Assembly: GCA_036338595.1 (NCBI GenBank)
Contig: JAYZBV010000073.1
Location: 1 to 64,000 of the forward strand
From: Planctomycetota bacterium
GTDB taxonomy: Bacteria; Planctomycetota; UBA8108; UBA1146
Length of the DNA stretch: 64,000 nucleotides
Direction of reading: 5' to 3'
Shown here: positions 7,303 through 26,247 of the stretch, piece by piece
Position numbering within the stretch: the first letter of the stretch is position 1
Layout of the letters: the number at the start of each line of letters is the position of its first letter
Notes under the pieces: model-generated
Told to the model about the DNA's origin: nothing
Databases searched by the model: none
What the model saw: the letters and a program-made list of their open reading frames with translations, nothing else
Program-made: the position numbers and the translations under genes

Positions 7303-8811
7303 CTATTCGACCCTTTCGCGGGTCCCCAGTGCCGGCTTCTCGTAGGAGTACATGTCGTGAACTCCTCCCTCACGCTGAGCGGACTGGGTTCGCGTTTCAA
7401 AACAGAGGTCACCACTGTCGAGGATGGAATGCAGCATGCTCATGTCCCGGACACCGATGTCCTGGAAAGCATGCTTCAAGCCCTGGCACAGGTAGGGGAC
7501 AAGATTGCGAATCGGACCCTTGTCCATCACCATCCCGGAGACTCCTTGTGCAACCCGCACGGTCTCATCCTCGGAGAAGTACCGCTTGCCACCTCCGACA
7601 TCCATCGCCTCGATGGATGCCATTCCACGGTAGCGCTTGAGCCGGATCCCATTCTGGTAGAAGTACTCGCCGGGGGTCTCCGATGTTCCCGAGAACATCA
7701 GGCCCATCATCACTGCCGAAGCTCCCATTGCCAAGGCCTTGACGATGTGGCCAATATCTCTGATACCGCCATCCGCGATGACAGGAACTCCCTGCTCCCT
7801 GCAGTGTAATGCGCAATGATAAACTGCCGCAGCCTGACCACGGCCGACTGCCATCGTCTCCTGAGTGGTACAGATGGAACCAGGACCCATGCCGACGCGA
7901 ATTCCGTCGGCGCCTGCCTTGATCAGGGCGGCGCACTGGTCCTGGGTGACGACATTTCCGGCGATCACCTGCAAGTCCGGGTATGTTGAACGAATATGGC
8001 GAAGCATATCGATCTGATAGACAGAGTGTCCCTGCGCACTATCGATGACCACTACATCGACTCCCGATTCGACCAGCGCATCTAGTCGATCGCGATCTTC
8101 TGGCCTGGTCGAGAGAGCCGCTCCCACCATCAGTTGCTTGTCGATGCTCTTGGAAGCATCCGGGAACTCGCGATTCTTCATGATGTCGGTGCGGGAAACG
8201 AGTGCGGTGAGACGACCATTCTCATCGATGATCGGTAATTTTCCTCGCTTCGAATCGCGAAGCATCCTGTTGGCATCTCCGAGTGTCACACCCTTTGGTG
8301 CCGTGATCAGGTCGGTCGTCATCATTTCGCCCAGCAGGGTCGACCGGTCCTGCTCGAAATCGACATCCCGGTTGGTGACGATGCCCACTAACTTCGAGGC
8401 GAGCGTTCCGTCCTCGGTGATGGGAATGCCAGAGAATCCATGTTTGGAGCGAATTTCATCGACGTCCGAGATGCAATTCGTCGGGCTCAGCACAACGGGT
8501 TCGGTGATGAAACCATTTTCGTAGCGCTTGACTCGCCTGACCATGCGAGATTGCTGCTCGATGGTGTTGTTGTAGTGAATGAATCCGATCCCGCCGAGAA
8601 GGGCCAGTTGAACCGCCATCTCGGATTCGGTGACGGTGTCCATCGGAGATGAGCACAGCGGGGCAGAGAGTTCGATATCGCGAGTAATGCGGGTCTGTAG
8701 ACTTACTTCCTGAACCCCGAAGTCGATGTATCCAGGCAGGATGATGAGGTCATCGTAGGTGAGGCTATTGTTGGACTGGAACAGTCCACGGGCATTCATT
8801 CCGTCGGTCAC
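7303..8811 (-). CDS. guaB: IMP dehydrogenase with CBS pair, eukaryote-like sequence type
   Basis: SSPMDTVTE, catalytic [16 protein letters not shown] and YRGMAS motifs; lies upstream of guaA. Confidence 0.97.
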
Positions 8812-9205
8812 AGGACCCCCTTGCTTCGCCTCAAATGAGCCAGCCCCCCTCGAGGCTGCTCATCCGCCGGATACGGGCAAATCGGGAGGTTCCCGATCGG
8901 TTCATCCCGACGGAACCACCCCGCGGCGACAATTCGTTGGAAGGGGCAGTGGACAGAGTTTAGGGGCGGGAGGGTCCAAGTCAACGAGACCCGCCGAGAC
9001 GGTCGATGGTGCTGCTGGGAGCCATTTCCCCTGCCGAGGACGGTTTCCTCGGCAAGGAGCCTCCCTTATCTTTCACGGGCAAGAGGACCAGTCCCGGCCG
9101 GGGTGTCAGAAGATGACCTCCGGTAACATCTTGCAGGTACGGGCCCGGCTCCGTGTACCGGCCCGGAACTCACTGTCCAGCCAGACCCAGGAACGAGGAA
9201 ACCAC

Positions 9206-10288
9206 ATGTTCAGCGAAGAAGACCACCCCGATGACGAGTTCACTTCGGCACAAGATGGCAGCGATGAGAGCCAGTCACCAGCCGAAGACCCCCCCGAGGG
9301 AACTGCGAACACCATCGTTCAGGTTCAGGAGGCAGTCTCCGAGTTACGACGTCAACTCGGTAACATCATCGTAGGTCAGGACGAGGTCATCGATCAACTG
9401 CTGCTGTCACTACTGTCCGGTGGGCACTGTTTGCTGGTGGGAGTGCCGGGTCTTGCAAAGACGCTGCTCATCAGCACGCTGGCGCGGGCACTGTCACTAT
9501 CCTTCAACAGGATTCAGTTCACGCCGGATCTGATGCCCAGCGACATCACCGGCACCGAGGTGATCCAGTCCGATACCGCCAGCGGCGATCGAGTCTTTCG
9601 ATTTGTTCCTGGTCCTATCTTCGCAAATGTTGTGCTGGCCGATGAGATCAACAGGACACCTCCCAAGACTCAGGCAGCTCTCCTGGAAGCGATGCAGGAG
9701 AAACAAGTCACCGTAGGTGGAAACCGCCACCCCCTGGACCCGCCGTTCTTTGTACTGGCAACCCAGAATCCCATCGAGCAGGAGGGAACCTATCCGCTTC
9801 CCGAGGCGCAACTGGACCGATTCATGTTCAACATTCGCGTCGACTATCCCAGCGCAGATGAAGAGCTTGAAATCATGCAGCGCACCACGGGGGGAACAGA
9901 TGCCGAAGTGCTTCAGGTTCTAGACGGTAAGAAGATCCTCGAATTGCAGGCGCTGGTTCGTAGCGTCCCGATAGCAGATGATCTGATCAGGTATGCGCTT
10001 CGGTTGACCCGAGCGACCCGCGTGCGAACCGATGAGGCGCCCGATTTTGTCCGGAGACATGTCCAGTGGGGAGCAGGTCCACGGGCAGGTCAATACCTCG
10101 TGCTCGGAGCGAAGGCGAGCGCGATCCTGGATGGTCGCCCACATGTGACCGGGGATGACATTCGCCGGGTGGCACTTCCTGTGCTTCGACACAGGATAGT
10201 GACCAATTTCGCTGCGGAAGCGGAAGGGGTCACCTCCGACGACATCATCGAGAAGTTGTTGGAAGAAACGGCGGCGCATGTCGTCTGA
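9206..10288 (+). CDS. moxR: MoxR-family AAA+ ATPase
   Basis: [43 protein letters not shown] and [22 protein letters not shown]. Start ATG 9206 behind GAGGA. Confidence 0.95.
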
Positions 10289-11180
10289 AGAGGCGCAGCG
10301 ACTGCTCGACCCTGCATCACTGGCGAAAGTCGCCGGTCTGGTCGTCCGTGCCCGGATGATCGTCGAGGGGTCGATCACGGGTCTCCACCGAAGTCCATTC
10401 CACGGCTCGTCCGTCGAGTTTGCGGAGCACAGAGAGTATGTCGCTGGAGACGATATCCGTCACATCGACTGGAAAGTCTTCGGCCGCTCCGATCGTTTCT
10501 ACATCAAACAGTTCGAGGAGGAGACAAATCTGCGGGTTCAACTGGTGCTCGACGCCAGTGAGTCAATGACCTACGGCTCGGGAGCGATGACCAAGTTGGA
10601 CTACGCCAGAACACTCGCGGCTTCTCTCGCCTACTTGATTCTTGGTCAGCAGGATGCTGTCGGTGCGCTCGTCTTCGATGATGAGATCCGGGCAGAAGCA
10701 CCCATCTCGCAGAGCAGAAGTCACCTTCAGGACCTGGTAACGGTCCTGTCCCAGCAATCAGGACAGGACACCACCGACATCGGTCAGGTTCTTGCAAATG
10801 TTTCTGATCGTTTGAAGCGCCGCTGCCTCATAGTTCTGCTCTCTGATCTGTTCGACGATCAGGATCGCCTGGTGCATGGCCTACGCAGGCTGCGCCATGC
10901 CGGGCACGATGTCCTCGTGCTTCACATCATGGACCCCGATGAGTTGAATTTTCCCTTCACGAGAATGACTCTGTTCGAAGGACTAGAGGATCTGCCTGTT
11001 CAACTGGCAGATCCGGATGCTGTGCGCGAGGCCTATCTGGTCGAAGTGCGTGAGTTCATGCGAAATCTGCGCAGAGATTTTCGCAACAGTGGCATCCAGT
11101 ACCAGTTGGCGGATTGTTCACTCGGGTTTGACCAGGTGCTTCGTGAGGCACTGGTTCGTAGGGTAGGCGGGCGGAAATGA
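10278..11180 (+). CDS. DUF58 family (VWA-like) protein, MoxR partner
   Basis: [30 protein letters not shown] and DASESM motifs; overlaps moxR. Confidence 0.93.
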
Positions 11181-13372
11181 ACTTTGCCAATCCTGCACTG
11201 CTTGGATTCCTTGCTCTGGGACTGATTCCCATCGTGATCTATCTGATCAACCGACAGCGATACCGTCGGCGCCCATGGGCGGCGATGGAGTTCCTGCTGA
11301 GAGCGATGAAGAGACACAGACGACGTCTCAGGCTCGAGAATCTCCTGCTGCTACTGCTAAGAACAGTGGCTTTACTTCTATTCGTGATGGCGATGGCGCG
11401 TCCGACAGTCTCCACGGACGCATTGCCGATCCTGGGTCAGCAGGTTCGCAGAGAGGGTGTGATCATCGATGCATCGGGAAGTTCAGCAGCGAGGATGACC
11501 AGCCGTACCTCGATGGAAACTGCCCGGGATCAAGCTCGTCAGTTGCTACTGGGTCTGGAGAAGGGCGACCAGGCTACATTACTCGTCGGGGGATTACCTC
11601 CTTCGGAAACTCCGATCCCTCGTCCGGAGATGGTGGGAGACGCGGGTCCTCCAGGAATTCTCGGCGATCTGGAACAACTGGCACCCGGCTGGCTCACCCT
11701 CACCCCTGAGGTGCTCATCTCGGATGCTGCATCGATGGTGGTCGAACAGGGAGGTGCCTGGAACTTTCACATCTACTCCGATTTTCAGCGAGGCGATTGG
11801 CTCTCGGAGGACGGAGCGGAACTTCCAGCAGTGAGGGAATCACTGGCGAGACTGGAAGCTACTGGTGCACAGTTGATATTGCATCAGGTCGGACCGGAGC
11901 GGCCGCGCAATGTCACGCTTTCATCACTTCGTCCATCCACAGGTCTGATCAGTTCGGATGTTCCGATTGCGTTCCAGGCGGTGATTGAGAATGCCGGCAT
12001 CGAATTGGTACCGGGAATAGAGGTCGAGTTCCTCGTGGATGGCCAGGTTCAGGGTAGCCGCAGGATAGACATCGATGGAGGTGAGGGCCGAACCATCTCA
12101 TTCCCTTACATCTTTCGGATGCCAGGGGTGGCCCGGGTCGAGGTACGACTTCGAAGTGATGATCTGGATCGAGACGATGTGAGGTACTTCGCCGCCGAAG
12201 TCCTGGAGGCTGTAGATATTCTGGTCGCAGATGGCGGCTGGGATCCGGTAGAGGAGTCTTCCGAGTCCGATTGGTTGGTTGCGGCTCTGGGCGACGACGA
12301 GGTTGGACCCACCGGAGTACGCCTTTCCCCATACAGGGTCGAGGTGGTTCCGGAGGATCGTCTTCTGTCTGCGGATCTCGCCTCTGCACGAGTCCTGGTG
12401 CTGGCGGATGTCGCCAACATGGAAGAGGAGTTCTCGAGTAAGATCGATGAATTCCTGCAGCAAGGTGGTGGCGTACTGGTCTTCACCGGAGCCCGGATGA
12501 AATCAGACAGTTGGACGAGAAATGCCTGGCGAAACGGGGATGGCTGGTTCCCGTACGAGGCGGGGCCCGCCATCGAGGACAAGAGACGGCAGATCTTCTA
12601 TCACTGGCAGATCGATGCGCCCGAGCACCCCGTGCTGGAATACCTGTCCGGTTTCCCCGAGGCAGGGCTAGGGGATGTCGCCATCAATGGACACAGGCCT
12701 CCGTTGACTCCGGTTCCTGAGGCAGATGTCCTGATGTCCCTGGACAATTTCGAGTCGACACCGATCCTGGTCCAGAAGGCCTGGGGCGGCGGAGTCGTAC
12801 TTGTATTCGGGACCGGTGCTGATCGAGACTGGAGTAACTTTCCCATCACGCCGGCCTATGTTTGCTTCCTGCATGAAGCGATGCCTTGGCTCACCTTGCG
12901 CGATGGAGGTGGGCGCAATCTGGCGCTCGGGCAGCCGTGGATCCAGAAGATCTCCTCTGAGGATTATGCGACTCGAGTCACCATGTTGACTCCCGACGGC
13001 GGAGCGGTGCCTCTGGCGCTTCGCGAAACAGATGACCGACGCTCCTTCGATCTCAATGTTGCCGGTCGCTGGGTTCCTGGCGTGTACGAGGTTCGTTTCG
13101 AGAAGGACACGGGCGAGGTGCGCAGCGATTCCTTCGCCGTCAATGCGAAGGCATCGGAGGGTGCTCTGGTTTTTGCAGACCCCGAGGAGATCGCAACGAT
13201 TTATCCTGCAGTTGTCCACGACGACTCTCAGATGAATTTAGAGGATGACAATCAGCGCAGCTCGGTTCTGGGAGATCTCTGGTATCCACTGTTCTGGGTC
13301 GTACTGGCGTTGCTTGTGGCGGAAACCTGTCTCGCCTACTTCTTTGGCCGCGCAAGAAGGAGAGGCGAATGA
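11177..13372 (+). CDS. BatA-like N-terminal double-TM + VWA + Ig-like + GATase-like membrane protein
   Basis: MNFANP..LIPIVIYLINR..PWAAMEFL..LLRT..ARP N-terminus; IDASGS MIDAS-like motif; FLQQGGGVLVF; C-terminal TM helix. Confidence 0.85.
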   Translation: MNFANPALLGFLALGLIPIVIYLINRQRYRRRPWAAMEFLLRAMKRHRRRLRLENLLLLLLRTVALLLFVMAMARPTVSTDALPILGQQVRREGVIIDASGSSAARMTSRTSMETARDQARQLLLGLEKGDQATLLVGGLPPSETPIPRPEMVGDAGPPGILGDLEQLAPGWLTLTPEVLISDAASMVVEQGGAWNFHIYSDFQRGDWLSEDGAELPAVRESLARLEATGAQLILHQVGPERPRNVTLSSLRPSTGLISSDVPIAFQAVIENAGIELVPGIEVEFLVDGQVQGSRRIDIDGGEGRTISFPYIFRMPGVARVEVRLRSDDLDRDDVRYFAAEVLEAVDILVADGGWDPVEESSESDWLVAALGDDEVGPTGVRLSPYRVEVVPEDRLLSADLASARVLVLADVANMEEEFSSKIDEFLQQGGGVLVFTGARMKSDSWTRNAWRNGDGWFPYEAGPAIEDKRRQIFYHWQIDAPEHPVLEYLSGFPEAGLGDVAINGHRPPLTPVPEADVLMSLDNFESTPILVQKAWGGGVVLVFGTGADRDWSNFPITPAYVCFLHEAMPWLTLRDGGGRNLALGQPWIQKISSEDYATRVTMLTPDGGAVPLALRETDDRRSFDLNVAGRWVPGVYEVRFEKDTGEVRSDSFAVNAKASEGALVFADPEEIATIYPAVVHDDSQMNLEDDNQRSSVLGDLWYPLFWVVLALLVAETCLAYFFGRARRRGE

Positions 13373-15804
13373 TGTCCCTTGTTCTGGCGCTTTCAGAGAC
13401 TCGTCTCGAAACCCGGATCGAATGGCTTGCAGCACCAGAGCCATGGATCATCGCCGTGGTCATCCTGCCGCTGCTGATCGGCCTCAGCGCCTGGGGGTAC
13501 AGGGGGGATCAGGGGAGACTCGGAGGCACAACGAGATTCATGCTGGGATCGCTTCGCTTTCTTGCGCTCCTGCTCGTGGTTCTGATCCTGTTTCGCCCGA
13601 CCCTCACGAAGGAGCGAGTTCAGACCGAATCATCGACGGTGTTGATCGTTGTCGACGATTCATTCTCGATGGGGATCCAGGACAGATGGTCCGATCCATC
13701 GATTCCTCCTGCGATCACATCCGTATCGGGCGTTCCCATCGTCGAGCAAACGACCAGGCTGGATATCGCTCGTGGTGTATTGACCGGGGGGACCTCTGAC
13801 CTGGTGGAGCGCCTGCGACAGAATGCAGATGTGCGAATCGTGGCCGGATCCGATGGAGTCCGTGGCATTGCAGATCTTCCGAAGCGCCAGGGTGGTGAAT
13901 CACCGACCACCGACGAGGTTTCCTTCGACGCCAGCAAGATCGAACTGCGGGGGCGCGTGAGCAGGATCGGCGATGCGATGGGGGATACCCTCGATGATGC
14001 GCGAGGGAAGACCGTCGCTGCAATGGTTCTCCTGAGTGACGGAAGAGACAGTGGCGGCGCAGTAACTCCAGAGGAAGTGGCACGTCGGTTTGGTGCGCGG
14101 GAAATCCCCATCCATGTCATCGGGATCGGTAATGCCGAGGAACCCCGTGATATTCGCCTGATAGACATGGATATCGCGGATGTCGTACTGGAGGGAGACA
14201 GGGTTCCGGTCGACTTCCGAATCGCTGCAGAAGGATATGAGGGTGTCGACGTCCGGGCAGAGCTACAACTGTTGCGGGAGGACGGGGGAATCGAACAACG
14301 TGTTCCTTACTACCCTCGAATCGGTAAGGACGGGCAGGTCGTCCCTCACCGTCTTGAGTTCACACCTCGATCTCCTGGCAAGTACCTCTGTCGAGTCGAG
14401 ATTGATCATCAACCTGGAGAATTGTTCAGCGAGAATAACGCACTGGAACGTCCGGTCACCGTTGTCGCAAGGAAGATCAAGGTACTCTACGTGGAAGGGC
14501 CTCCCCGATACGACTACCGGTACCTGAAAAATTCGTTGATCAGAGACCCGACGATGGAAACTCAATGCCTGTTGCTCGAAGCAGACCCGGAGTTTCCCCA
14601 GGAGTCATCGCCAGGGGTTGCTCCACTCAGAGAATTTCCTCGCACTCGAGAAGAGTTGTTTCAATACGATGTCTTGATACTTGGAGATATCCGTCCTGAC
14701 GCTCTGTCGGTGAATCAGAAGGAGTGGATAGTAGAGTTTGTGGATGATCATGGTGGTGGCCTGGTGTTCATCGCCGGCCAGTGGTTCATGCCAAGGAGGT
14801 TCAGAGGCGATCCACTCGAGCGAGTTCTGCCGGTGGAACTCGAAGAAGCAGATGATCGTGGATCGATGTCGAGGGACCTGGTGGAACCATTTCATGTCCA
14901 ACTGACTCCCGAAGGGCTGGAGCATCCCGTGATGCAACTGGTATCGGACGGTGAAAAAAACAAAGAACTCTGGCAGTGGCAGGGCCGCAGCGATCAAACG
15001 ATGCCGGGTTTCTTCTGGTACCAGCGAGTCAAGAAACTCCGAAAGGGTGCCGTGGCGCTTGCGGTTCATGAGTCTGATGAGCACTTCACCTATGGACCGA
15101 GACCGATCTTCGCGTTCCAGTACTTCGGTCGAGGTCGTACCTTCATCTCCCTGACCGATGACACATGGAGGCTGAGGAGGTTGGTCGGGAACCGCTGGTT
15201 CTATCGCTTCTGGGGTCAGGTCACTCGATTCGTCGGAGCTGCCCGGTTGCTGGGTCCCTCGAAGCGGTTTTCGGTGAGTGTAGATCCGAGGGAAGTGGTA
15301 CTCGGAAATGAGGTCAAGATACTGGCCAGGATGCTGGGACCCGATTTCAAGCCGACCTCGGAAGAGGAAGCCCTGCTGAGGATGGAGCGAGTCGAGGATT
15401 CAGATGGCCGGGCGCTGGAAATTCAGGCGGTCCGAAACCCTGCACGGCCGGAGTACTACGAGGCCTCCATCGAGGCGCGAGCTCTGGGTGAGCACAGAAT
15501 CTCCCTCATCGATCGCGAGGAGGAGGTCGCCAGTACCGTGTACAGGGTCGTTGTACCCCAACTGGAGTATGCGGATCCGAGGATGGACAGAACGCGCCTC
15601 CAGCAGATTGCAACCCTCTCCGGTGGCAAATATCATGAGGTGACGGACGCCGCAAATGTTGCCGAGGAGGTGGAAGCGCTGGAGAGAGAAGTGCCGATTT
15701 CCGCCGAGCGAGAGCCTCTCTGGGATCATCGCTGGGTTCTGGCCCTCTTTACGCTGCTGCTGACTGTAGAATGGATACTGCGAAAGGTAGTCCGGCTCCC
15801 TTGA
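13369..15804 (+). CDS. VWA + glutamine-amidotransferase-like domain membrane protein
   Basis: N-terminal TMs; VDDSFSM and LLSDG VWA motifs; VLYVEGPPRYDYRYL, YDVLILGD, GGGLVFIAG; C-terminal LWD..EWILRK. Confidence 0.85.
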   Translation: MMSLVLALSETRLETRIEWLAAPEPWIIAVVILPLLIGLSAWGYRGDQGRLGGTTRFMLGSLRFLALLLVVLILFRPTLTKERVQTESSTVLIVVDDSFSMGIQDRWSDPSIPPAITSVSGVPIVEQTTRLDIARGVLTGGTSDLVERLRQNADVRIVAGSDGVRGIADLPKRQGGESPTTDEVSFDASKIELRGRVSRIGDAMGDTLDDARGKTVAAMVLLSDGRDSGGAVTPEEVARRFGAREIPIHVIGIGNAEEPRDIRLIDMDIADVVLEGDRVPVDFRIAAEGYEGVDVRAELQLLREDGGIEQRVPYYPRIGKDGQVVPHRLEFTPRSPGKYLCRVEIDHQPGELFSENNALERPVTVVARKIKVLYVEGPPRYDYRYLKNSLIRDPTMETQCLLLEADPEFPQESSPGVAPLREFPRTREELFQYDVLILGDIRPDALSVNQKEWIVEFVDDHGGGLVFIAGQWFMPRRFRGDPLERVLPVELEEADDRGSMSRDLVEPFHVQLTPEGLEHPVMQLVSDGEKNKELWQWQGRSDQTMPGFFWYQRVKKLRKGAVALAVHESDEHFTYGPRPIFAFQYFGRGRTFISLTDDTWRLRRLVGNRWFYRFWGQVTRFVGAARLLGPSKRFSVSVDPREVVLGNEVKILARMLGPDFKPTSEEEALLRMERVEDSDGRALEIQAVRNPARPEYYEASIEARALGEHRISLIDREEEVASTVYRVVVPQLEYADPRMDRTRLQQIATLSGGKYHEVTDAANVAEEVEALEREVPISAEREPLWDHRWVLALFTLLLTVEWILRKVVRLP

Positions 15805-17903
15805 AGAAATTCCTCACCTCCACTGACTCCAGCCATTTGAAACAGCGATCAGCGTTTCGTCCTCTACTGCTGACCTCGTTGCTGCTGTTTTCTGTCAATG
15901 GCACTCTCCGAGCGGATATCGGCTCAGCCTTGATCCCCTTGCTGGTCGGGGCCGACGGGGTCATCCAGGAGTATCGGAATGCGGTGTCTCACATCGATTC
16001 AGGGGAAGTCCTCAAGGGAATCCGCAAGATCCAGGTTCTTCATGAAACCGTGTGGGGGAACAACCCCCAGATGGAGGCCGATTCCTCCGATAACTGGCGA
16101 GTCGTCAGGCCACTTTCAACTCGAATCATCGAAAGATTGCGAGCACTGCCTCCTGAGCACCAGCAGATGTATCGCAAGGAGTTCGACATTCAAGCTCGCT
16201 CCGTGCTCGATAGAGCACTGTCCGACATGGACCCGGAAGCGCTCCTGAGAGCGGCAGATATCTACCCTTTGACCGATGCGCGGATCGAAGCGCTGGTCGC
16301 AGCAGGCGACCTTTTCCTCGAGCGAGACCAGCCTCAACTGGCGGTCGGTGCCTGGGATCTAGTACTGCTTGAACTGGCAATTGGCGACCAGAATGCCGCT
16401 CGCAGTGATGAGTTATCCATCTCCTTGAAGCCTCGTCTGTGGCTGGCACTGATGCGGGCAGGGAAATCGCAGCGAGCAGAAAAACTGAGAAGCGAGGCGG
16501 GTGACCAGGGGCAACCCTTCGAAGAGAGTTCCATCACTTCAATGCCTTCCGATCAGGCGCATGTTCCGGAAAATCCCATCGAAGAGGGTGTGATCGCCTG
16601 GAAGACGCACAACTACTCGCAGCATGTTGCCTACGGTACCGGGCGAGGAAGAAGTTACTATCCCGACCTGACGGGTTCGATCCTGACACCCGGGATCGGC
16701 CAGGACTGGGTAGCCATCGCAACTTCGAGGCGCCTCCTTCGTTATGACCTTCGTACCGGAAAACTGGTAGCCAACGATAACCTCCATTCTGGAGCGCCGT
16801 ACTTCGAGGAGCAGGATCCGGATTCTCGCCTGTGGGCGGCGACCGACGGTTCATTACTGATCTCCAGTTACGTCGCCTGGGCCAGTCGCCGTGAAGATTA
16901 CCTGGGATTCGACATCCAGGTCTCTCTCCCGTCGCGTGCCATGAAGTGCTGGGATGTGAACGGTGATGGAAGGCTGCTCTGGGACACATCGGATCGGTCA
17001 AACGGCGATGCGATGCTCAGAAAAAGTTCGTTCAACTCGACCCCGGTGATCAAGGACGGCAAGGTCTGGGCACTCGGTTGGAGGAAGAGCGGCTACATCG
17101 ATGTGACTCTCTGGTGCCTGGATGCGAGAACAGGAAAGAAGATCTGGTCTCGACCGATTGTCGGTAACCAGGTGGAACTGACGATGTTCGGTGAACCGGC
17201 ACGAGAGCCGATTCTGGGGTCGGTACTCCTCGCAGACGGCATGGTTTATTGCTGTTCCAACCTCGGTGTGATTGCCGCGATGCGCGCATGGGATGGGCAG
17301 GTGCAGTGGATAGCCGAATACGATCGTCAATCCAAGCGAAGTTACCGAAGTCGTTACCGTCAGCCTCGAAGGGGCAGAGTCTGGGCGCCGAATCCACTTG
17401 TATTGCATGACGGAAAGTTGTTCGTGACGCCTCTCGATTCGAGTCAACTCCATGCCATCAATGCCGAAACCGGTTCCATCATCTCGCAAGTCGAGGGTAA
17501 GGGACTGGGTCCTCATATGCTCGGTGTGACCGATGGAAGGCTGGTTCTGTTTGGTGATCTTCTCACCTCGATGATGGTGAGCGATATCGGGAGATCCGAA
17601 CAGTGGAATCAGGCTCTCACTCGATCCCCAGCCACCGCCAGGCCAGCCCTGGTAGAAGGTGGAGTGATCTACATCAGCGTCAATGAATCTGCGTTGTATC
17701 AGCAAGCACTGGACCACACTCATGCGACAAGAGTGATCGCATCCCTCTCCGACGGCCCGAAGCAGCGCCCCGGCATCGGCGTCTTCCGCGCGGAAAGTTC
17801 CATCGGTGGGCGAGTGGATGTTGTCGGTGATCGCATCATCCTCACCAATCTCATCCAGGCCACGTGCCTGACCCAGCGACTGGCGATCTGGGAGGATAAG
17901 TGA
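15801..17903 (+). CDS. Exported TPR + PQQ/BamB-like beta-propeller protein
   Basis: Signal-like hydrophobic N-terminus; repeats YDLRTGK, LDARTGKKIW, RAWDGQVQW and INAETG. TTG start overlaps the upstream TGA. Confidence 0.75.
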   Translation: MKKFLTSTDSSHLKQRSAFRPLLLTSLLLFSVNGTLRADIGSALIPLLVGADGVIQEYRNAVSHIDSGEVLKGIRKIQVLHETVWGNNPQMEADSSDNWRVVRPLSTRIIERLRALPPEHQQMYRKEFDIQARSVLDRALSDMDPEALLRAADIYPLTDARIEALVAAGDLFLERDQPQLAVGAWDLVLLELAIGDQNAARSDELSISLKPRLWLALMRAGKSQRAEKLRSEAGDQGQPFEESSITSMPSDQAHVPENPIEEGVIAWKTHNYSQHVAYGTGRGRSYYPDLTGSILTPGIGQDWVAIATSRRLLRYDLRTGKLVANDNLHSGAPYFEEQDPDSRLWAATDGSLLISSYVAWASRREDYLGFDIQVSLPSRAMKCWDVNGDGRLLWDTSDRSNGDAMLRKSSFNSTPVIKDGKVWALGWRKSGYIDVTLWCLDARTGKKIWSRPIVGNQVELTMFGEPAREPILGSVLLADGMVYCCSNLGVIAAMRAWDGQVQWIAEYDRQSKRSYRSRYRQPRRGRVWAPNPLVLHDGKLFVTPLDSSQLHAINAETGSIISQVEGKGLGPHMLGVTDGRLVLFGDLLTSMMVSDIGRSEQWNQALTRSPATARPALVEGGVIYISVNESALYQQALDHTHATRVIASLSDGPKQRPGIGVFRAESSIGGRVDVVGDRIILTNLIQATCLTQRLAIWEDK

Positions 17904-19000
17904 TGAACACCGGAACCAGGTGGCTAATACTGGTGATGTCCGTGTTGCTCGTTTTTCCGGCACCAAGTGCTCTGACCTTTGCCGTAGACGATGATGAGCC
18001 GACTCGAATCATCGATTTGAAGTTGCAAGAGCGAGCACGCCTTGCCGCAGAGAGGGGTCTTGAATTTCTCAAACAGACCCAGAATGCGGATGGGTCCTGG
18101 ACCGACAAGATCGGTCGGAAGGTCCATTACGAGTACCGTGGAAGACTTGGCAAGCACGTCGGGGTGACCTCGCTCGCCTGCCTTGCGTTTCTCGCCCAGG
18201 GGAGTCTCCCGGGTCGAGGAAAGTACGGCGAACAGGTTGAGAAGGGCCTCGACTTCATCCTGAGGACGGTTCAGACCAACGGATTCATCTCCACCGATGA
18301 GTCAAGGATGTACAGCCACGCCTTCGCCACTCTATTCCTTGCCGAGGTCTACGGCATGACCGGAATGGAGAAGGTCAAGGAGAAGCTAAAGAGCGCTGCA
18401 GGGCTGATCATCCAGGCGCAGAATGACACGGGTGGTTGGCGCTACCAGCCGGGAGCGGATGATGCGGACATGAGTATCACCGTCTGTCAGGTGATGGCAT
18501 TGAGAGCTGCCAGAAACGCTGGTATCCACGTGCCGAAGGAGGTGGTAGATGCCGCCATCAAGTACGTGCGAGATTCCTCGAACATAGAAAGTGGCGGGTT
18601 CATGTACCAGCATGAGGTCGGACCCACTGGACGGGTGCAAAGATCGAGGACCACTTTTCCTCTCACCGCTGCGGGGATCACTGCGCTCTACGGTGCTGGG
18701 GTTTATGAGGACCGCATCATCGATCGTGGGTTGATCTATCTGCGCCACCATCGGCCGAGAAGATACGAAGCTCTCAATACCTTCGACTACTACTACGGGA
18801 TGTACTACGCAACCCAGGCCGCTTTCCAGCGTGGCGGCGAGTTCTGGACTTCATGGCACAGGGACACATGGCGCGACATCCTATCTCTGCAGAATCCGGA
18901 TGGGTCGTGGCAAGATCTTGTGGGACCCAATTATGCGACTGCGATGGCGTGTATCATCCTTGAGATTCCGTTCCAGTACCTGCCGATATTCGAGAGGTGA
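17900..19000 (+). CDS. Prenyltransferase/squalene-oxidase-repeat (alpha/alpha toroid) protein 1, signal peptide
   Basis: QW-type repeats QNADGSW, QNDTGGWRY and QNPDGSW; DMSIT..QVMALRAARNAGI. Confidence 0.85.
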   Translation: MMNTGTRWLILVMSVLLVFPAPSALTFAVDDDEPTRIIDLKLQERARLAAERGLEFLKQTQNADGSWTDKIGRKVHYEYRGRLGKHVGVTSLACLAFLAQGSLPGRGKYGEQVEKGLDFILRTVQTNGFISTDESRMYSHAFATLFLAEVYGMTGMEKVKEKLKSAAGLIIQAQNDTGGWRYQPGADDADMSITVCQVMALRAARNAGIHVPKEVVDAAIKYVRDSSNIESGGFMYQHEVGPTGRVQRSRTTFPLTAAGITALYGAGVYEDRIIDRGLIYLRHHRPRRYEALNTFDYYYGMYYATQAAFQRGGEFWTSWHRDTWRDILSLQNPDGSWQDLVGPNYATAMACIILEIPFQYLPIFER

Positions 19001-21183
19001 TCGTGATCGATCCGATGGAAACAGCCTCGATCGAGAGACCTCGCCTGGCACTCCAGAAGATCCGGGAGTTGCGAGGGCGTAGACGGTTGATGCGATCCAT
19101 CACCGGAGGATTCCGCTGGTTGGTGGTGGTGATTGCATGCGTCTGGCTGATGTTCTTGCTCGATTGGTTTGCAGATCTTCCGATGGCACTCAGGGTCGGG
19201 CAGATCGCAGCGACCGTCACGCTGCTACTGATTACCTTTCGTGCCATCTTGTTGGCAGCGAGGACTCCTGCGACAGAGGATCAACTCGCCTCCATGGTAG
19301 AAAAAGCATCCAGTGAACTCGAAGACGCTCTGATCACAGCAGTTCAATTGACAGACCCTGAGAATCCTCGGCGCCATCTCTACAATCCGGAACTCATCGA
19401 AGAGACCGTCAAGATCGCAGAGAGCCGAATGGCCAACATGCGGCCAGGACGATTGCTATCCTGGAGCCGTGCCTTGTCGACGATCGGCCTGCTGTCTCTG
19501 CTGCTCTTTCCTGCCATCATCGGTGGTTGGCTGCGGCCTGATCTTCTTCACACCTTCGTCGAGCGCGATCTATTGCTCGGAAATGACCCCTGGCCCCGTG
19601 CCTATGATCTGGTGGTGACGAGCCCGAAAGATACAGATCTAGTGGTGGCAAAGGGGACATCATTGGTGATCGATGTACTCAAGACTCGTGGAGGAAATGC
19701 CCGTGCATTCCTGGATGTGGTCTTCCCTGCAGTCGAGGGGCGAAGGGAAATGAAAGAGGAACTCGCACTCGACCGCAAGGGAACAGCTGGGTTTCGCCAT
19801 GTCTTTCAAAATCTTCAGAGAGACATCCAGTTCCGGGTGGAATGCGGAGATTTCAGTGGCCAGTGGTATTCCATCCAGGTTCGGGCCAGGCCTCGAATCG
19901 AGGAGATGGCACTTCAGTACGAATTTCCAGAATACACGGGACTCTCTTCAGAAGGCGAAGACTCGCGATCCGGGAGTGGGCACGTCAAGGCCCCGACCGG
20001 CACGCGTGTCAACTTTGTCGCACGCACCAGCATAGATGTGAAGAGTGCGGTTCGAATGGAAGCCCGACCCAGTGGTGATGGTGAAATCGTGACCGAGTCG
20101 ACGATAACGGTCGAGGATGGAAACACACTCCGGGGAGATTTCATTGCAGAAGCGGATGCACGCTGGTGGATTTCCCTCGACTCTGAACAGGGATTCACTA
20201 ACGACAATCCGATCATCTGGCGTATCGCGGTCATCCCCGACAGGGCACCGGAGGTGTCCATCGATGAACCGGGTCAGAACATCGAGATCACCCCCCGGGC
20301 GCTGTTGGATCTTTCGGTGCTCGTTCGAGATGATTACGGAGTCCAGTCCGGAAATCTGATCTTCGAACCGGAACTGGAGGGAGAATGGGAACCGAGGGTG
20401 ATCCCGCTCGATGAGATAGGAACTGCCGAGGGCCTGCACGCAGATGGATCCCAGACGCTTCAGATCGACCTGGCAACATGGCAACTGAGCGCGGGTCAGC
20501 GTGTTCAGTATCGAGCCACTGCCACGGATGCACTCGAACAACTGGGTACCAGCAGGACCTGGATACTGAGCGTTCTCAGCGAGGAAGAGCTGGAACGAGT
20601 GACCCAGGACGAACTGACGCTGCTCAAGGAGAGGCTGGAGGAGACCTTCAGTGTCCAGAGAGAGGTTCGGAGGGAACTCGAAGACGTGCGCGAAGCGTTG
20701 AATTCAGGCGAAGCGGCGATCGATCAGGCTCCGCTGGCCCGCCATGCTCGTGGTGGACAGGATCGGGTTTCAACCCGGGTGGAGGATGCTGCAGAGAGGC
20801 TTGCCACCATCGCAGAGAGATTGCTTCGAAACAGGATGAGTGACGCATCCGAGCTTGCGTGGATTCAAGAGTTGAAGGATCGCATCGATGCACTGGGATC
20901 CGAAACGATCACACCTGCAAGGGAGCAACTGGAGAAGTTGGCTGCTCGCTCGGCAGCAGGAGAAGCGACCGTTGAGGAAACGGATGAGGCGCTCGATGCA
21001 GTTCGTCGCGTCGAACGTGGACTCGCGGATGTGGTTGCTGATCTTCAGGAGTGGGGCGACCTGCGCACGGTGATTCGTAAACTTGAGGAATTGCTTCGGT
21101 CGGAGAAGGACCTTGAACATCGGATCGAAGAGAAGGTCAGAGAGTCTCTCGGAGGAGACAGCACGGAAGGAGAAAATCGATGA
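18997..21183 (+). CDS. Membrane protein with Ig-like domains and C-terminal coiled coil (DUF4175-like)
   Basis: Three TM segments; LEDALITAVQL; PDRAPEV..DDYGV motif; heptad-rich C-terminus. Confidence 0.7.
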   Translation: MIVIDPMETASIERPRLALQKIRELRGRRRLMRSITGGFRWLVVVIACVWLMFLLDWFADLPMALRVGQIAATVTLLLITFRAILLAARTPATEDQLASMVEKASSELEDALITAVQLTDPENPRRHLYNPELIEETVKIAESRMANMRPGRLLSWSRALSTIGLLSLLLFPAIIGGWLRPDLLHTFVERDLLLGNDPWPRAYDLVVTSPKDTDLVVAKGTSLVIDVLKTRGGNARAFLDVVFPAVEGRREMKEELALDRKGTAGFRHVFQNLQRDIQFRVECGDFSGQWYSIQVRARPRIEEMALQYEFPEYTGLSSEGEDSRSGSGHVKAPTGTRVNFVARTSIDVKSAVRMEARPSGDGEIVTESTITVEDGNTLRGDFIAEADARWWISLDSEQGFTNDNPIIWRIAVIPDRAPEVSIDEPGQNIEITPRALLDLSVLVRDDYGVQSGNLIFEPELEGEWEPRVIPLDEIGTAEGLHADGSQTLQIDLATWQLSAGQRVQYRATATDALEQLGTSRTWILSVLSEEELERVTQDELTLLKERLEETFSVQREVRRELEDVREALNSGEAAIDQAPLARHARGGQDRVSTRVEDAAERLATIAERLLRNRMSDASELAWIQELKDRIDALGSETITPAREQLEKLAARSAAGEATVEETDEALDAVRRVERGLADVVADLQEWGDLRTVIRKLEELLRSEKDLEHRIEEKVRESLGGDSTEGENR

Positions 21184-24100
21184 TGATGACCAAGCAGAGG
21201 GGGCCGCTACTCCTGTTGTTGATCCTCCTCCTGGCAGTTGTCCCATCGCTGTTATCCGCACAGACGGGTAATCGCCTCGCTCGGTTGCAGGAAGAGGCCA
21301 GAGAATACCTCAGGTCGTTGCAAGTCCAGATGGAGTCACTCGCGGAGCGGATCGAGAGCGAACAACCAGAGGATTCAACTCGTCTCAGAAATGCAAGGGA
21401 ACGGATTGTCAGGGACCTGCTTGAAGATGATATGCGTTCAATTGCCGTAGCGCTCGAGACTGAGGACTACATCGTTGCCCTCGACACGGTACGCAAGGTT
21501 CGGTCAAACCTGGAACTGGTGCTGGCGATCCTGGAGGATCGCAATATCGATCCGGAACAGGTTGAGAGTCGACTGGAGCAGGTTGCCCAGAGATTGAAGC
21601 AAATCGGTGAGATTGCGGATGCGCAGCGATCCCTTCGAGATCGCACTGCTACTGCAGAATCGGCGCAACAGGATGTGCAAGATCTCAGGGATGTGAGTCA
21701 AGCGATCGATGAGATCGCCGCACAACAGCAAGAACTTCTCGGAAGCGAAAACTCGTCGGAAGACGAAGCAGAGATGGGGCAGGCGCAGGAGATCTCCAAT
21801 GAGGCTCGTCGGGTTGCCGATGACCTGTCCCGGGAAGCGCGCCGTCAGCAAGGAATCGAAGCGCTGGCTCGCAGGGTCGATCAGATCCGCAATGAAGTGC
21901 GACAAGATGCACGCGAAAGCGAAAATCTGGGATCGGAGCAGAACTCGGAGACGAGCGCCGCGATGCAGCGTTTGGCGCGCCGTGCCAGCGAGCAGAGTGC
22001 GAAGATCCGCCAAGCCCAGCAGAGTGTAGATGCGTTGCGCCGCGAAGCGGCTGCAGATGCGGAAGACGGGGACGAAAATGCCTCTGCGTCGCTGGAAGCT
22101 CTCGACAGGGCCGGCGAGGCACTGGAGCGATCGGAGAGCGCAGCCAACGGCATCGCAAGCCCTGATGATGCTCGTCCAGGGGACGCCTCGACTCTTCGCG
22201 ATGAGCAAGGCGAGGCGCTCGACGAGGCGAGCAAGGCGCTGCGCGAGGCTGCCGATTCGAACGGAGAGCGAGCGGGGGCGATACAGCAGCGGCTAGAACA
22301 GTTGCGCGAACGACTCGACCGATGGAGACAGCGGCAGCAAGAAGGCGGTGGGTCAGGTCTTGACAACAAGGCACAATCTGCCGCAGAGGATCTGGAAGCA
22401 GCATCCGGGGCACTGGATCGGGCCCAGCAATCGGGCCAGCAGTCGGGCCAGCAGTCGGGCCAGCAGTCTGGTCAGCAGTCCGGTCAGCAATCAGGCCAGC
22501 AGTCCGGTCAGCAGTCCGGTCAGCAATCCGGTCAGCAGTCAGGCGAGCAATCGGGCGAGCAATCGGGCGAGCAATCTGGCGAGCAATCTGGCGAGCAATC
22601 TGGCGAGCAGTCTGGCGAGCAGTCTGGCGAGCAGTCGGGCGAGCAGTCGGGTGAGCAGTCCGGCCAGCAATCGGGCGAGCAGTCGGGTGAGCAGTCGGGT
22701 GAGCAATCGGGTGAGCAGTCCGGCCAGCAATCGGGTGAGCAGTCGGGTGAGCAGTCCGGCCAGCAGTCGGGCGAGCAGTCGAGTCAACAGGAACGCATCG
22801 AGCAGATGCAGGATGCTGCCGAGAAGGCGCAAGACGCGGCAGAGAAACTATCATCTCTTGCAGAAGACTCGGCGCAGGACCGTCCTTCTTCGCAGCAGCA
22901 ATCGCTTGCGGAACAGACCAGCGAACTGGAAGACAAGCTCGACCGCCTCGAGAAAAAGCTAGCTGCAGATCAGAGCCTCTCCCCCGAGGAAGATGAAAAG
23001 TTGCGCAAGAAGGTTGGCGAGGCTCGCCAGGCACTCAGGAGTGCTCGTTCAGCGATGCAGGGGGCTGCCGAGCGGATGAGTGGCGGTGAGTCTGCAGAAT
23101 CGGCGCAGCAGGCTGCGCAGGATGCCCTGGAGAGAGCGAAGGATGCTCTCGAAGGTTCAGATCAGGATGCACTCGAGCGATTGCGAAGACAGCAGCAAGA
23201 GACACCCGAACTGGCCCCTGAGCAGGACGAACTGGAACGGCTCACTCGCAAGCGAGCCGAGGAATCGGAAGAATCGGACCCCGAGGCTTCCGAGGGGCTC
23301 GAGGGCGCAGCCCAGGCGATGGATGAGGCTTCTGATAGTCTCGAAGGCGGAGATTCCTCACAAGCGCGAGAGAAACAGGACGAGGCGCTCGAGCAATTGC
23401 AGCAGGAAATGGACGCGCTGCAACAAGAGGAGCGAGAACTGGTCGATCTGAAGGTGGAACAGGAACTGATCGACCTGATCGGAACCATCACCGACATGGC
23501 AGAGGAAGTCGATTCGATTCTATCGGAGACAAGGACCATCGCTGAAGCGCTGGGGGATGCTCGTCCAGGCAGGGCTCAGCGAGCGCGAATGAAGCGGCTT
23601 TCAGCTCGTGTCGCAGATGTGGAAGATTCAGGAAATGAAGTGCTCGCAGCTCTTGAACGGGAGGGCGTGAGGGTATTCTCCTACATCGTGAGGGATCTTC
23701 TCTCTGATCTTGCCGAGGCGAGGGAAGGATTGAGCCCTCGAAGCGATGCAGGTTCCGATACCCAGCTTCTACTCGCCGAGGCACTCGACGCTCTGCGCAA
23801 GTTGAGGGATTCGCTCGAAGAGGAACTTCGTCGGCGTAATCAACAGCAGCAACAGCCCCAGCAACAGCAGCCGCCCCAGCAGCAGCCTCAACAGCAACAA
23901 CTGGTACCGCCAGCGGCAGAGTTGTTGGCGCTCAAGCGAATGCAGGAGGAAGTCCTGCGCAGGACACGAAGGCTCGATGGAATGCGGGGTGAGGAAGGCG
24001 AGTTCGATGCTCTCGAGGAGCGAGTTCTGGAGAGGCTGGTGCAGAGACAGGGCAGCATCATAGAACTCACCGAGCAGATCGCCGAGGATCTGCGCAAGCA

Positions 24101-24188
24101 GATGCAGCCTCCGATGGTCCAGGAAGAGGCCCCTGAGACCGATTCTGAGACAAAAGGGGAGCCTGGCGGATCGAAGGGGGACGACTGA
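21180..24188 (+). CDS. Large exported coiled-coil protein with (Q/E)QSG repeat and poly-Q/P tract
   Basis: Signal peptide ([19 protein letters not shown]); E/Q/A/R-rich helical sequence; [15 protein letters not shown] near the C-terminus; overlaps the upstream stop. Confidence 0.8.
22425..22784 (+). repeat. In-frame 12-bp tandem repeat, 30 copies, consensus SAG CAR TCN GGY
   Basis: Counted directly: 10 QQSG, 10 EQSG, then mixed copies; the last copy is EQSS. Variation is otherwise synonymous apart from the Q/E alternation. Confidence 0.95.
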
Positions 24189-24310
24189 TGGCCGATACAT
24201 CCATCGGAGATTCGGGGTATAATGAGGAAGAGCCGCAAGTGTGCTTCCCTGGACGCATCCTGTTCGATGATCGGGAGCGGGGAATGGTTTGCGGTGGAAG
24301 GATTGGATCG

Positions 24311-25075
24311 ATGAAGAAGTTCACCATGCATGTTTCCGTCTTCGGATGCGCCTTCCTGTTGCTGTTGCTGACCGTTCCAGTGATGGCCCAGGAGGATGGA
24401 AAACCCGAGACTGACTCCACCGGGCCTGCCGTTGAAGTGCCGGAGTCCGACCCCGCCGATACACCAGACGATGAGTTTCCTGTCGATATCGACCCGCTCG
24501 ACATCCTCGATTCAGCAGATCCGCTCGGCAAAGTCGGCTCTCTCGTGGATGAGATCTCCCGAAACATGAAGGAGATCGAGAGCCTCCTCGAGGAAGACGA
24601 CACCAGTGAGGGGAACCAGTCGGTTCAGCAGCAAACTCTCAGCAGAATTGATGAACTGATTACAGAGGTGCAGCGTCTCACCGGGACGTGACAGAACGGC
24701 GGCTCCCCGTCGGGGAGCCCCTCAAGGAATGCTGGGTCTTCAAAATCTGAATCCGTTCAGAAGCAGTCAGGTCGTCAAAAGAACGTCGCCTCACAAAAAG
24801 ACGGGGGCGAGCAGAAGCAGTCCTCGAAGGAGCAAAGTGCAGGAGAGCCAAAGGACGGTAGCGAGCAGGTTCGTAATGACCGCACCACAGATGGCGAACT
24901 TCCACCTTCCGAGGTGGGAGAGTTGCGTGATCAGAGGGGTGCTGGCCGTTGGGGTAGGTTGCCGAAAACTGTGATCCAACGGATGTATGACAACGGCAGA
25001 AGGCAGTTGCCCGAGAAATACCGTATCTTGCTTGAGGATTACTTCAGAAAACTGCCGGAGCGTTCCCCGCGTTGA
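24311..25075 (+). CDS. Exported protein (254 aa if read through) with in-frame TGA at codon 127; candidate selenoprotein or read-through product, alternatively a nonsense-disrupted gene
   Basis: Signal peptide MKKFTMHVSVFGCAFLLLLLTVPVMA. After TGA 24689-24691 the same frame continues for 127 sense codons, ending WGRLP..QLPEKYRILLEDYFRKL, and its stop overlaps the next gene's TTG. Confidence 0.7.
24701..24719 (+). promoter_or_regulatory. Candidate bacterial SECIS-like / recoding hairpin
   Basis: GGCTCCCC-GTC-GGGGAGCC forms a perfect 8-bp stem whose loop starts GU, 17 nt 3' of the in-frame UGA. No U-tract follows. Confidence 0.5.
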
Positions 25076-26247
25076 ACGAAGACCCTGCACCTATAGCACC
25101 AGAATGCCACGACGAATCGAATCCAGAGGATCCTCCCTCTATCGGGAGACTCCATCGCTGGCTCGTTCTTGTTCTACTGATGTGGTTTGCAACGATGCAG
25201 ATCGCTGAAGCATCATCACCTGAACCCCATCCAACTGACGATACAAAAAGCGGTTCAAGTTCCAGTGCCGTGACACTAGGGGTTCCCCACGACTCTCGCA
25301 GTGAACTCGCCATCCGTCGCGGCATCTCGCTGCTGGTGAAGCGTCAAAATGGCGTTGGCGCATTCTCCAGTTCCTATCCGTTGGCGGTCACATCGCTAGG
25401 TGGAATGGCTCTGCTCGGCGGTGGAACAGAGTTCGGGGTGGGGAAAGAGGGAGAAGCGCTGGAACGAGCAGTCGATTACCTGACTGCCGCCGTGCGTGCA
25501 GATGAGCGCGGGTATTTGCAGGATCGTGGTGCGACCAGATCGCGGATGCATGGCCATTCCTACGCCATCCTGTTTCTTTCGCAGGTGACAGGGCAACTTC
25601 CAACACCTCAGCGAGAGCGCCGGCTTCGAGGGGTCATCCGTTCAGGAGTGGATCTGATGCTCTCCTGTCAGACCCAGCGAGGCGGATGGGGTTATGAACC
25701 GGACGATCCGCTCGACGAGGCTTCACTGACGGTCTGTTGCCTGCAGGCGTTACGAGCAGCAAAGGAAGCGGGGATTGCCGTTCCAGTCGATCCGATCGCA
25801 CGAGCGATGAAGTATCTCAAGGAGTGTTGTTCAGAGGATGGTTCATTTCGGTACTCGCTTACTCGAGGAACTACCAGGACCTCTTTCGAGATGACTGCCG
25901 CTGCGTTGTCGACGATGGATGCCGCTGGCGAGTTTGAACTGGATGAGAGAAAGCGTGGACTCGCATTTCTTCGGCGATCAATTGAGAGCGCCGGTCGTAG
26001 CAAGAAGGGCGCATTCCAGGCGGCAAGGAATTTTCCCTTCTACGGCAACTTCTACACCGGTCAGGTGCTCCAACAATCTCGTGGAGCGACATGGGATCGT
26101 TGGACCCGATCGGTATGGCCACGGCTGCTCGAACTTCAAAAAGCAGACGGGGCCTGGGAAAGCCGTTTTGGAGATGAGTATGGCACGGCGATGGCGCTGC
26201 TGATCCTGGAACTTCCCCTGGGATACTTGCCGCTTTACGACCGCTGA
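25072..26247 (+). CDS. Prenyltransferase/squalene-oxidase-repeat (alpha/alpha toroid) protein 2
   Basis: QTQRGGWGY, EASLT..LQALRAAKEAGI and QKADGAW; the C-terminus LELPLGYLPLYDR mirrors that of protein 1. Confidence 0.85.
   Translation: MNEDPAPIAPECHDESNPEDPPSIGRLHRWLVLVLLMWFATMQIAEASSPEPHPTDDTKSGSSSSAVTLGVPHDSRSELAIRRGISLLVKRQNGVGAFSSSYPLAVTSLGGMALLGGGTEFGVGKEGEALERAVDYLTAAVRADERGYLQDRGATRSRMHGHSYAILFLSQVTGQLPTPQRERRLRGVIRSGVDLMLSCQTQRGGWGYEPDDPLDEASLTVCCLQALRAAKEAGIAVPVDPIARAMKYLKECCSEDGSFRYSLTRGTTRTSFEMTAAALSTMDAAGEFELDERKRGLAFLRRSIESAGRSKKGAFQAARNFPFYGNFYTGQVLQQSRGATWDRWTRSVWPRLLELQKADGAWESRFGDEYGTAMALLILELPLGYLPLYDR

Follow-up and report, generated by a model that had tools for sequence, protein, structure and literature searches.

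A probable selenocysteine codon in a predicted exported, scaffold-like protein of Planctomycetota

Does the UGA codon in the middle of a predicted exported-protein gene of a Planctomycetota bacterium end translation, or is it decoded, and if so, as what? The question arises at positions 24311..25075 (+) of a 64,000-nucleotide stretch of contig JAYZBV010000073.1 (hereafter the window), where public databases carry the two halves of the gene as separate hypothetical proteins. From the comparative evidence set out below, the mid-gene UGA very probably codes for selenocysteine (Sec). The overall best explanation, to which we assign a probability of about 0.88, is that the gene encodes a selenoprotein with Sec at the UGA, which may provide an accessory redox site in an exported subunit of an envelope complex.

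The interrupted reading frame

The first point to note is that the reading frame is as the first-pass annotation had described it. The TGA at 24689..24691 (+) is in frame with ATG 24311 and ends that ORF; the same frame then stays open for 127 codons and closes at TGA 25073-25075, a stop that shares bases with the TTG start of the next gene at 25072. Overlaps of this kind, 4 nt long, occur at most other junctions of the operon. The full product would be 254 amino acids long with Sec at residue 127. The start at 24311 is preferred to a longer one at ATG 24188, which was ruled out because in-frame stops interrupt the region upstream of the signal peptide in some orthologues. An ATG in the leader (24186-24310) overlaps the stop of the upstream gene and may open a short coupling ORF; this leader recurs in genomes G005 and G018, but in a different frame relative to the gene. 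No sigma-70 promoter or plus-strand terminator was found within 24100-25300, and Rfam gave no match at the locus.

The downstream half indeed lacks an early start codon of its own: the next in-frame start lies 75 codons 3' of the UGA, and no start position for the second half is common to the 22 closest orthologues. None of these orthologues contains a further in-frame stop. Median dN/dS is 0.11 before the UGA (47 unsaturated pairs of 231) and 0.12 after it; taken separately, the linker gives 0.24 (42 such pairs) and the C-terminal block 0.09 (25 pairs). These values indicate that purifying selection acts on both halves. The UGA codon is identical in contigs from three separate studies (X2 record 11, X4 record 22 and X11 record 1), a comparison covering 4 of the 24 listed runs; the runs containing the locus are mostly marine metagenomes. 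Reads of metatranscriptome X18 cover small pieces of the locus, and the UGA lies outside the covered parts.

The way in which databases divide the gene would fit a nonsense mutation, an assembly error or two separate genes. Against this stand the agreement of the three studies, the persistence of the UGA in orthologues down to about 37% identity, the continuity and strong constraint of the second half, its want of a shared start, and the existence of uninterrupted Cys homologues. Thus the plain nonsense mutation that had been offered as an alternative is excluded by the conservation of the UGA and of both halves, and we give this group of readings practically no weight. UGA is also the commonest stop in the source genome (1166 of 1791 long ORFs), and a global reassignment of UGA is therefore excluded.

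The hairpin, the aligned site and the selenocysteine machinery

A perfect 8-bp stem with a GUC loop 17 nt past the UGA had been reported, and is confirmed at 24701..24719 (+): GGCTCCCC (24701-24708) pairs with GGGGAGCC (24712-24719) around the loop GTC (24709-24711). According to the portion of a 2026 review that we consulted (PMC13188914), the bacterial SECIS (bSECIS) consensus has a loop of 3-9 nt with a G among its first two bases, a stem of 4-16 bp, a spacing of 16-37 nt and an MFE of -7.5 or lower. The present hairpin, with its GUC loop, 8 bp, 17 nt and -21.5 kcal/mol (over the 49 nt after the UGA), lies within each of these bounds. By folding energy alone it is unremarkable (z -1.2 to -2.1). 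In the genome background, the GU-loop and position rule picks out an 8-bp stem behind 1 of 1165 TGAs that end an ORF and behind 11 of 12613 Cys codons (~0.1%); for a GU-loop stem of 5 bp at the same spacing the figure is about 1%. When 97,139 TGAs were screened genome-wide, the site ranked second by flanking open-frame length among those with GU-loop hairpins.

Amongst homologues, the hairpin accompanies the UGA. A GU-loop hairpin with a stem of at least 5 bp, 16-28 nt past the UGA, is found at 30 of 31 UGA loci, as against 1 of 19 non-UGA loci (1/11 Cys, 0/8 other). Pairing was counted over 25 of the 31 loci (14 distinct), leaving out those misaligned by MAFFT or not entered: 90% of the stem cells are paired and 8 are compensatory. 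None of 500 shuffles was as high, in a test that is lenient for related sequences, and slid controls reach at most 68%. Four distant hairpins misaligned by MAFFT were scored instead with a loop-anchored script. Synonymous stem positions are fixed (TCC 22/22, GGG 22/22); most four-fold sites elsewhere are variable, with a few outside the stem likewise fixed. Of 11 distant UGAs that were folded, two (G307 and G159) have no more than weak hairpins. The conserved hairpin with compensatory changes that the first-pass annotation had named as a mark of Sec is therefore present.

The same holds for its expectation of UGA or Cys at the aligned codon. The gene has 63 matches in 56 of 61 genomes, the source genome included; 50 were aligned, 4 of the other 13 were inspected, and the remainder are listed without an internal TGA. 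Across the 50 loci the site is UGA in 31, Cys in 11 and neither in 8, and all 22 matched genomes of three genera have UGA. With the helix motif IDxLI as the origin of the count, most Cys homologues carry CxxC at +11/+14. The UGA falls at +14 in 24 loci (TxxU 14, SxxU 5, GxxU 5), at +11 in six (one of them a natural UxxC) and at +13 in one. We read the Sec site as a degenerate CxxC, which would take the form TxxU here and UxxC, CU or two-UGA forms elsewhere. On a tree of the 50 rows, built without the Sec site and having several long branches, there are at least 5 changes between U and non-U, and U/C sister pairs occur (G030/G028 and G055/G042).

Taking the homologous unit (hereafter the module) more widely, a profile search finds it in 208 of 301 Planctomycetota genomes of a phylum sample. 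Amongst the 150 listed of 244 representative matches, 13 end directly after the helix and 120 are full-length. A Cys lies within the 15 residues after the helix in 50 of these 120 (CxxC in 23), compared with 0.1% elsewhere; the other 70, among the matches listed, have none, so the site must be optional or dispensable in many lineages. Titles of 15 matched loci name Planctomycetota in 13 cases (including UBA1146 and TMED53), Bacillota in one and an uncultured bacterium in one. The closest match (L069, 89% identical) is the one titled 'Bacillota bacterium', probably a mislabelled assembly.

Some paralogues have two in-frame UGAs six codons apart (U-x5-U): L049 (G016), L050 (G009), L065 (G060) and L067 (G055). 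In G055 the second UGA sits in the loop of the hairpin following the first, and in G009 and G016 the operon copy is Cys-free and the double-Sec copy lies elsewhere. In four distant genomes selA and a module-barrel block share a contig and lie ~4-6 kb apart (L154 in G149, L155 in G125, L156 in G099 and L157 in G060); the copies inspected (G149, G099 and G060) have no UGA, and the proximity may reflect ancestral gene order or chance.

A genome-wide search for the Sec machinery, as the first-pass annotation had advised, returned selA, selB, selC (tRNA-Sec) and a UGA-containing selD in the source genome. The 30 UGA-bearing genomes all have selA and 29 have a selB match; the remaining one, G002 (90% complete), has the UGA without a selB match at E<=1e-60. 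Since selA is present in 58 of 61 relatives, its occurrence in every UGA genome discriminates little. The idea that Cys versus Sec mirrors machinery loss within the class was rejected on the same figures (selB being present in 55/61), and many selA-positive genomes have Cys or neither at the site. In the phylum sample, 221 of 301 Planctomycetota genomes have selA. Outside the class, an internal UGA was seen in 12 genomes, all selA-positive, and in 0 of 30 selA-negative ones, for the 116 genomes among the 150 listed of 334 matches; the association is weak (one-sided p 0.022, with kin not independent).

The TGA screen also located selenoprotein sites of known type, at G000:C33:5111 (-), C93:3131 (+) and C77:15103 (+); these genes comprise two UshA-like proteins with PCGU and one ResA/TlpA-like protein with UxxC. 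The Sec-containing SelD (C72 selD) is a further selenoprotein of known type in this genome. The UshA-like and ResA-like genes carry the same GUC loop as the present hairpin. Two further genes came to light. An exported protein at G000:C54:28428-29714 (+) (L172), with repeats that we take to be FG-GAP-like, has TGA 28815 in the context TTUCICFC and a GUU-loop hairpin. It has no NCBIfam match; 16 of 31 genomes yield 17 matches, every one with a TGA somewhere inside. It is likely to be another selenoprotein that catalogues cover poorly, and candidates with FG-GAP are listed in Table S9 of PMC4807772. The other, at G000:C57:42867 (-) (L171), is a selenoprotein candidate, again without an NCBIfam match; it has a signal peptide, the sequence CHGVPGIWUP and a GUC-loop hairpin of 9 bp.

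These observations bear on the other alternative raised earlier, namely programmed or leaky read-through independent of Sec, which would yield a short isoform (the helical hairpin only) and a long one. A 3' hairpin can stimulate read-through, and one is present. A truncated product would in any case arise under limiting Se, and the UGA-C context that had been cited as a weak stop is found both here and in 19 of 31 UGA loci, source genome included. This context is, however, not conserved: across the 22 closest orthologues the +4 base is C in 13, A in 8 and T in 1, which counts against a leaky stop, and UGA-C as an explanation was rejected. Furthermore, it is Cys in particular that aligns with the UGA, neither UAG nor UAA occurred there among the translated loci, the hairpin conforms to the bSECIS consensus and resembles those of the genome's known selenoproteins, and the genomes seen to have an internal UGA are all selA-positive. 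We consider read-through of this kind very unlikely. SECIS-directed insertion of Sec, by contrast, has our high confidence: SelB with Sec-tRNA(Sec) would bind the GUC-loop hairpin 17 nt downstream and place Sec at the UGA.

Architecture, operon and possible role of the Sec site

The protein begins with a predicted cleavable signal peptide (24311..24388, +), recognised by hydropathy from its hydrophobic core and ..VMA/Q site; a hydrophobic N-terminal segment is present in 22/22 closest orthologues. An acidic, Pro-rich region of variable length follows (24389..24520, +), likely to be disordered, and then a helical hairpin of two long helices (24521..24685, +) with the conserved pattern I-x3-M-x6-L-x4-TG-x2-TQ-x2-Q-x6-[LI]DxLI. 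In an AF2 model of a 188-aa construct the helices span residues 5-28 and 34-59, with a pLDDT of about 89-98. The T-G-T-U motif (24680..24691, +), equivalent to the CxxC of Cys homologues, puts Sec at the end of helix 2, where it would be the sole Cys/Sec of the mature chain in 22/22 orthologues. Beyond it lies a Gly/Ser/Gln-rich low-complexity linker (24692..24949, +), modelled with low confidence, whose length changes preserve the frame. The conserved C-terminal WGxLP...Y...Y domain (24950..25072, +) has two short helices; its W, G, L and Y are invariant in 109 sequences, and 33 of 39 columns are invariant in the 22 orthologues. Neither His nor other ligands are conserved in the module. The comparative evidence thus supports the earlier proposal, which placed Sec where a helix gives way to a linker in a protein with a signal peptide.

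Pfam, NCBIfam (20.0) and PDB sequence searches returned no family, the PDB matches being poly-Q or designed coiled coils, and Foldseek of the module model against the PDB gave no match at E<=0.001. In thioredoxin-fold oxidoreductases the fold is beta-alpha-beta and CxxC sits at the N-terminus of a helix; the model here is all-helical without strands, and that fold is absent. For CsoR/FrmR/CstR, helical Cys sensors of the cytoplasm whose three-helix fold binds DNA and carries Cys/His ligands, there were only hairpin matches at E>=2, and the present protein has a signal peptide and no conserved His. For DUF4175 (PF13779), the selenoprotein has no Pfam match above the gathering score, one of 109 members matching at E 0.0096. 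Its Atlas neighbours are unnamed Planctomycetota clusters with a low recognition score, the nearest named one being DUF4175 (0.75). The module hairpin shows weak similarity to the upstream DUF4175-like protein (20-38 bits), and an hhalign comparison of the module with the C-terminus of that protein is not significant (E 0.067). The module does form the end of a 1438-aa DUF4175-like fusion (P0133), and is fused in the larger proteins P0141 and P0079. The first-pass annotation had seen no recognisable redox fold. That is correct as regards known folds, but the site itself is a degenerate CxxC and is therefore redox-motif-like after all.

The operon opens with an ORF that we take, from its motifs, to be a MoxR-like AAA+ ATPase (8759..10288, +; the true start is probably further downstream), and with a presumably DUF58-like protein (10278..11180, +; from motifs in the translation). 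A BatA N-terminal double-TM protein (11177..13372, +; PF07584 E 1e-16, TIGR02226 E 7e-19) and a vWA/GATase1-like membrane protein (13369..15804, +; both matches below the curated cut-off, vWA E 4e-4) come next. Domain searches assign the following genes to a PQQ-like beta-propeller protein (15771..17903, +), an alpha6/alpha6 barrel protein, the second of the operon (17900..19000, +), a DUF4175 protein (18997..21183, +; E 7e-14) and, with the help of neighbourhood comparison, a DUF4175-like long helical protein (21180..24188, +), which contains a long tandem array of SGQQ/SGEQ units. The selenoprotein gene then precedes an alpha6/alpha6 barrel of squalene-cyclase/prenyltransferase fold (25072..26247, +), whose start overlaps the selenoprotein stop. 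Operon copies throughout the order keep the upstream DUF4175-like and downstream barrel neighbours; paralogues and several class-level copies are without DUF4175 and barrel neighbours.

We infer that the signal peptide would export the 254-aa selenoprotein. Synteny, translational overlap and fusions make it likely that, once exported, the protein joins the operon's DUF4175-like helical proteins and alpha6/alpha6 barrels in an envelope complex, as a small subunit; its conserved parts would be the helical hairpin and the WGxLP domain, with a flexible linker between them. Within such a complex, the most likely role for Sec, at a little under even odds, is that of an accessory exposed selenol, which would bond reversibly, as Se-S or Se-Se, to partners or other copies, or sense periplasmic oxidation. 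It would tune the complex rather than carry its core function, an accessory role suggested by the 70 of 120 full-length homologues without Cys at the site. No redox precedent was found for a coiled scaffold in which a helix ends, at its C-terminus, in CxxC.

Two other roles have to be weighed. Sec could be a metal ligand (of Zn, Cu or Hg type) on oligomerised hairpins in a MoxR/vWA metal-handling assembly. The occurrence of CxxC, CC, CU and two-UGA forms at a single site would suit this, MoxR/vWA pairs are reported to serve as machines for remodelling and for inserting metals (PMC13036017 and PMC9976466), and the non-significant Foldseek rows include the CsoR, FrmR and CstR hairpins. On the other hand, one Sec is enough in most UGA genes, other ligands are not conserved, and the many Cys-free homologues tell against it; metal binding is accordingly a distinctly less probable role. 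More doubtful still is that Sec or Cys accepts a covalent modification (alkylation or a thioether cross-link) made by the neighbouring barrel, for which Zn-dependent protein prenyltransferases and LanC cyclases are the models. In every order-level orthologue the barrel gene either overlaps the module gene or lies close behind it, the site is in an accessible, flexible segment of the model, and the downstream barrel has invariant MHGH and ExSxTxC motifs, that is, an invariant His-x-His, Glu and Cys. However, the nearest structures to a barrel model (G011 orthologue, pLDDT 92) are those of squalene-hopene cyclase, AprG and GH76 rather than of protein prenyltransferases or LanC, and the motif is retained next to module copies without Cys. 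The redox role would thus rank ahead of both, an ordering that we hold less firmly than the decoding itself.

As a wider and more tentative suggestion, the module may be a Planctomycetota-wide envelope element, occurring as standalone, paralogous and fused copies, with an optional Cys/Sec switch that has repeatedly been turned to Sec, sometimes to two. It could act as a redox- or metal-gated part of a MoxR-vWA-Bat-DUF4175 machine, possibly cross-linked or modified by barrel enzymes, with Sec in a scaffold and not in an enzyme active site.

Comparison with known systems

The protein appears to represent an uncatalogued exported selenoprotein family, in line with the first-pass view that it is unlike known ones. 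It has no Pfam or NCBIfam (20.0) match, and no counterpart was seen in the 119 families of Table 1 of the 2026 review (PMC13188914) as consulted, where listed families without a Pfam/NCBIfam model were compared by description. Nor was one found, by description, in the consulted parts of deep-Sep (PMC12013277), SelCysML (PMC13745706) and BSepDB (PMC13326102). Table S9 of PMC4807772, in the part seen, holds one 'hypothetical' planctomycete candidate with a Cys homologue, which could be a member. The word Planctomycetes has 0 occurrences in that review's main text (PMC13188914), despite the presence of selA in 221/301 genomes. The locus would add, from widespread marine Planctomycetota, a family of selenoproteins whose genes annotation pipelines break into two hypothetical proteins.

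In its decoding, the gene resembles the selenoproteins that depend on SelB and a bSECIS, with E. coli fdhF as prototype: an in-frame UGA with a hairpin having G first in its loop 16-37 nt on (PMC13188914, part consulted), Sec/Cys pairs among homologues, and selABCD in the genome. The decoding mechanism is thus ordinary. The protein differs in having no oxidoreductase, thioredoxin or metalloenzyme domain, and in that the Sec site is wholly missing in over half of its homologues; its architecture departs from the oxidoreductases that dominate the catalogue.

The site itself recalls the CxxC-derived Sec motifs, such as TxxU in peroxiredoxin and, in thioredoxin-like and AhpD-like families, CxxU and UxxC (Table 1 of PMC13188914). 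In both, either Cys is replaced by Sec, often with Thr or Ser in place of the first. Here, however, a long helix has the motif at its C-terminal end and a disordered linker sets out from it, with no thioredoxin fold and no match to the models of those families. The relation to DUF4175 (PF13779) is one of neighbourhood and fusion, the selenoprotein itself having no Pfam match.

The scaffold-like architecture and operon setting are unusual for a selenoprotein. The operon resembles the Bat (Bacteroides aerotolerance)/MoxR-vWA clusters, with a BatA N-terminal domain, a vWA protein (below cut-off), and MoxR-like and DUF58-like proteins together. Bat proteins have been proposed to act in periplasmic redox balance, and deletion of Bat genes in Leptospira biflexa gave no oxidative-stress phenotype (PMC3557215, part consulted). 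No report of a selenoprotein from such clusters was found in the sources searched. Selenium, as a labelable atom at a single mutable residue, would offer a handle on the long-standing and contested idea of a periplasmic redox or metal function for these clusters, which in Planctomycetota also contain a propeller, two barrels, DUF4175 proteins and the module.
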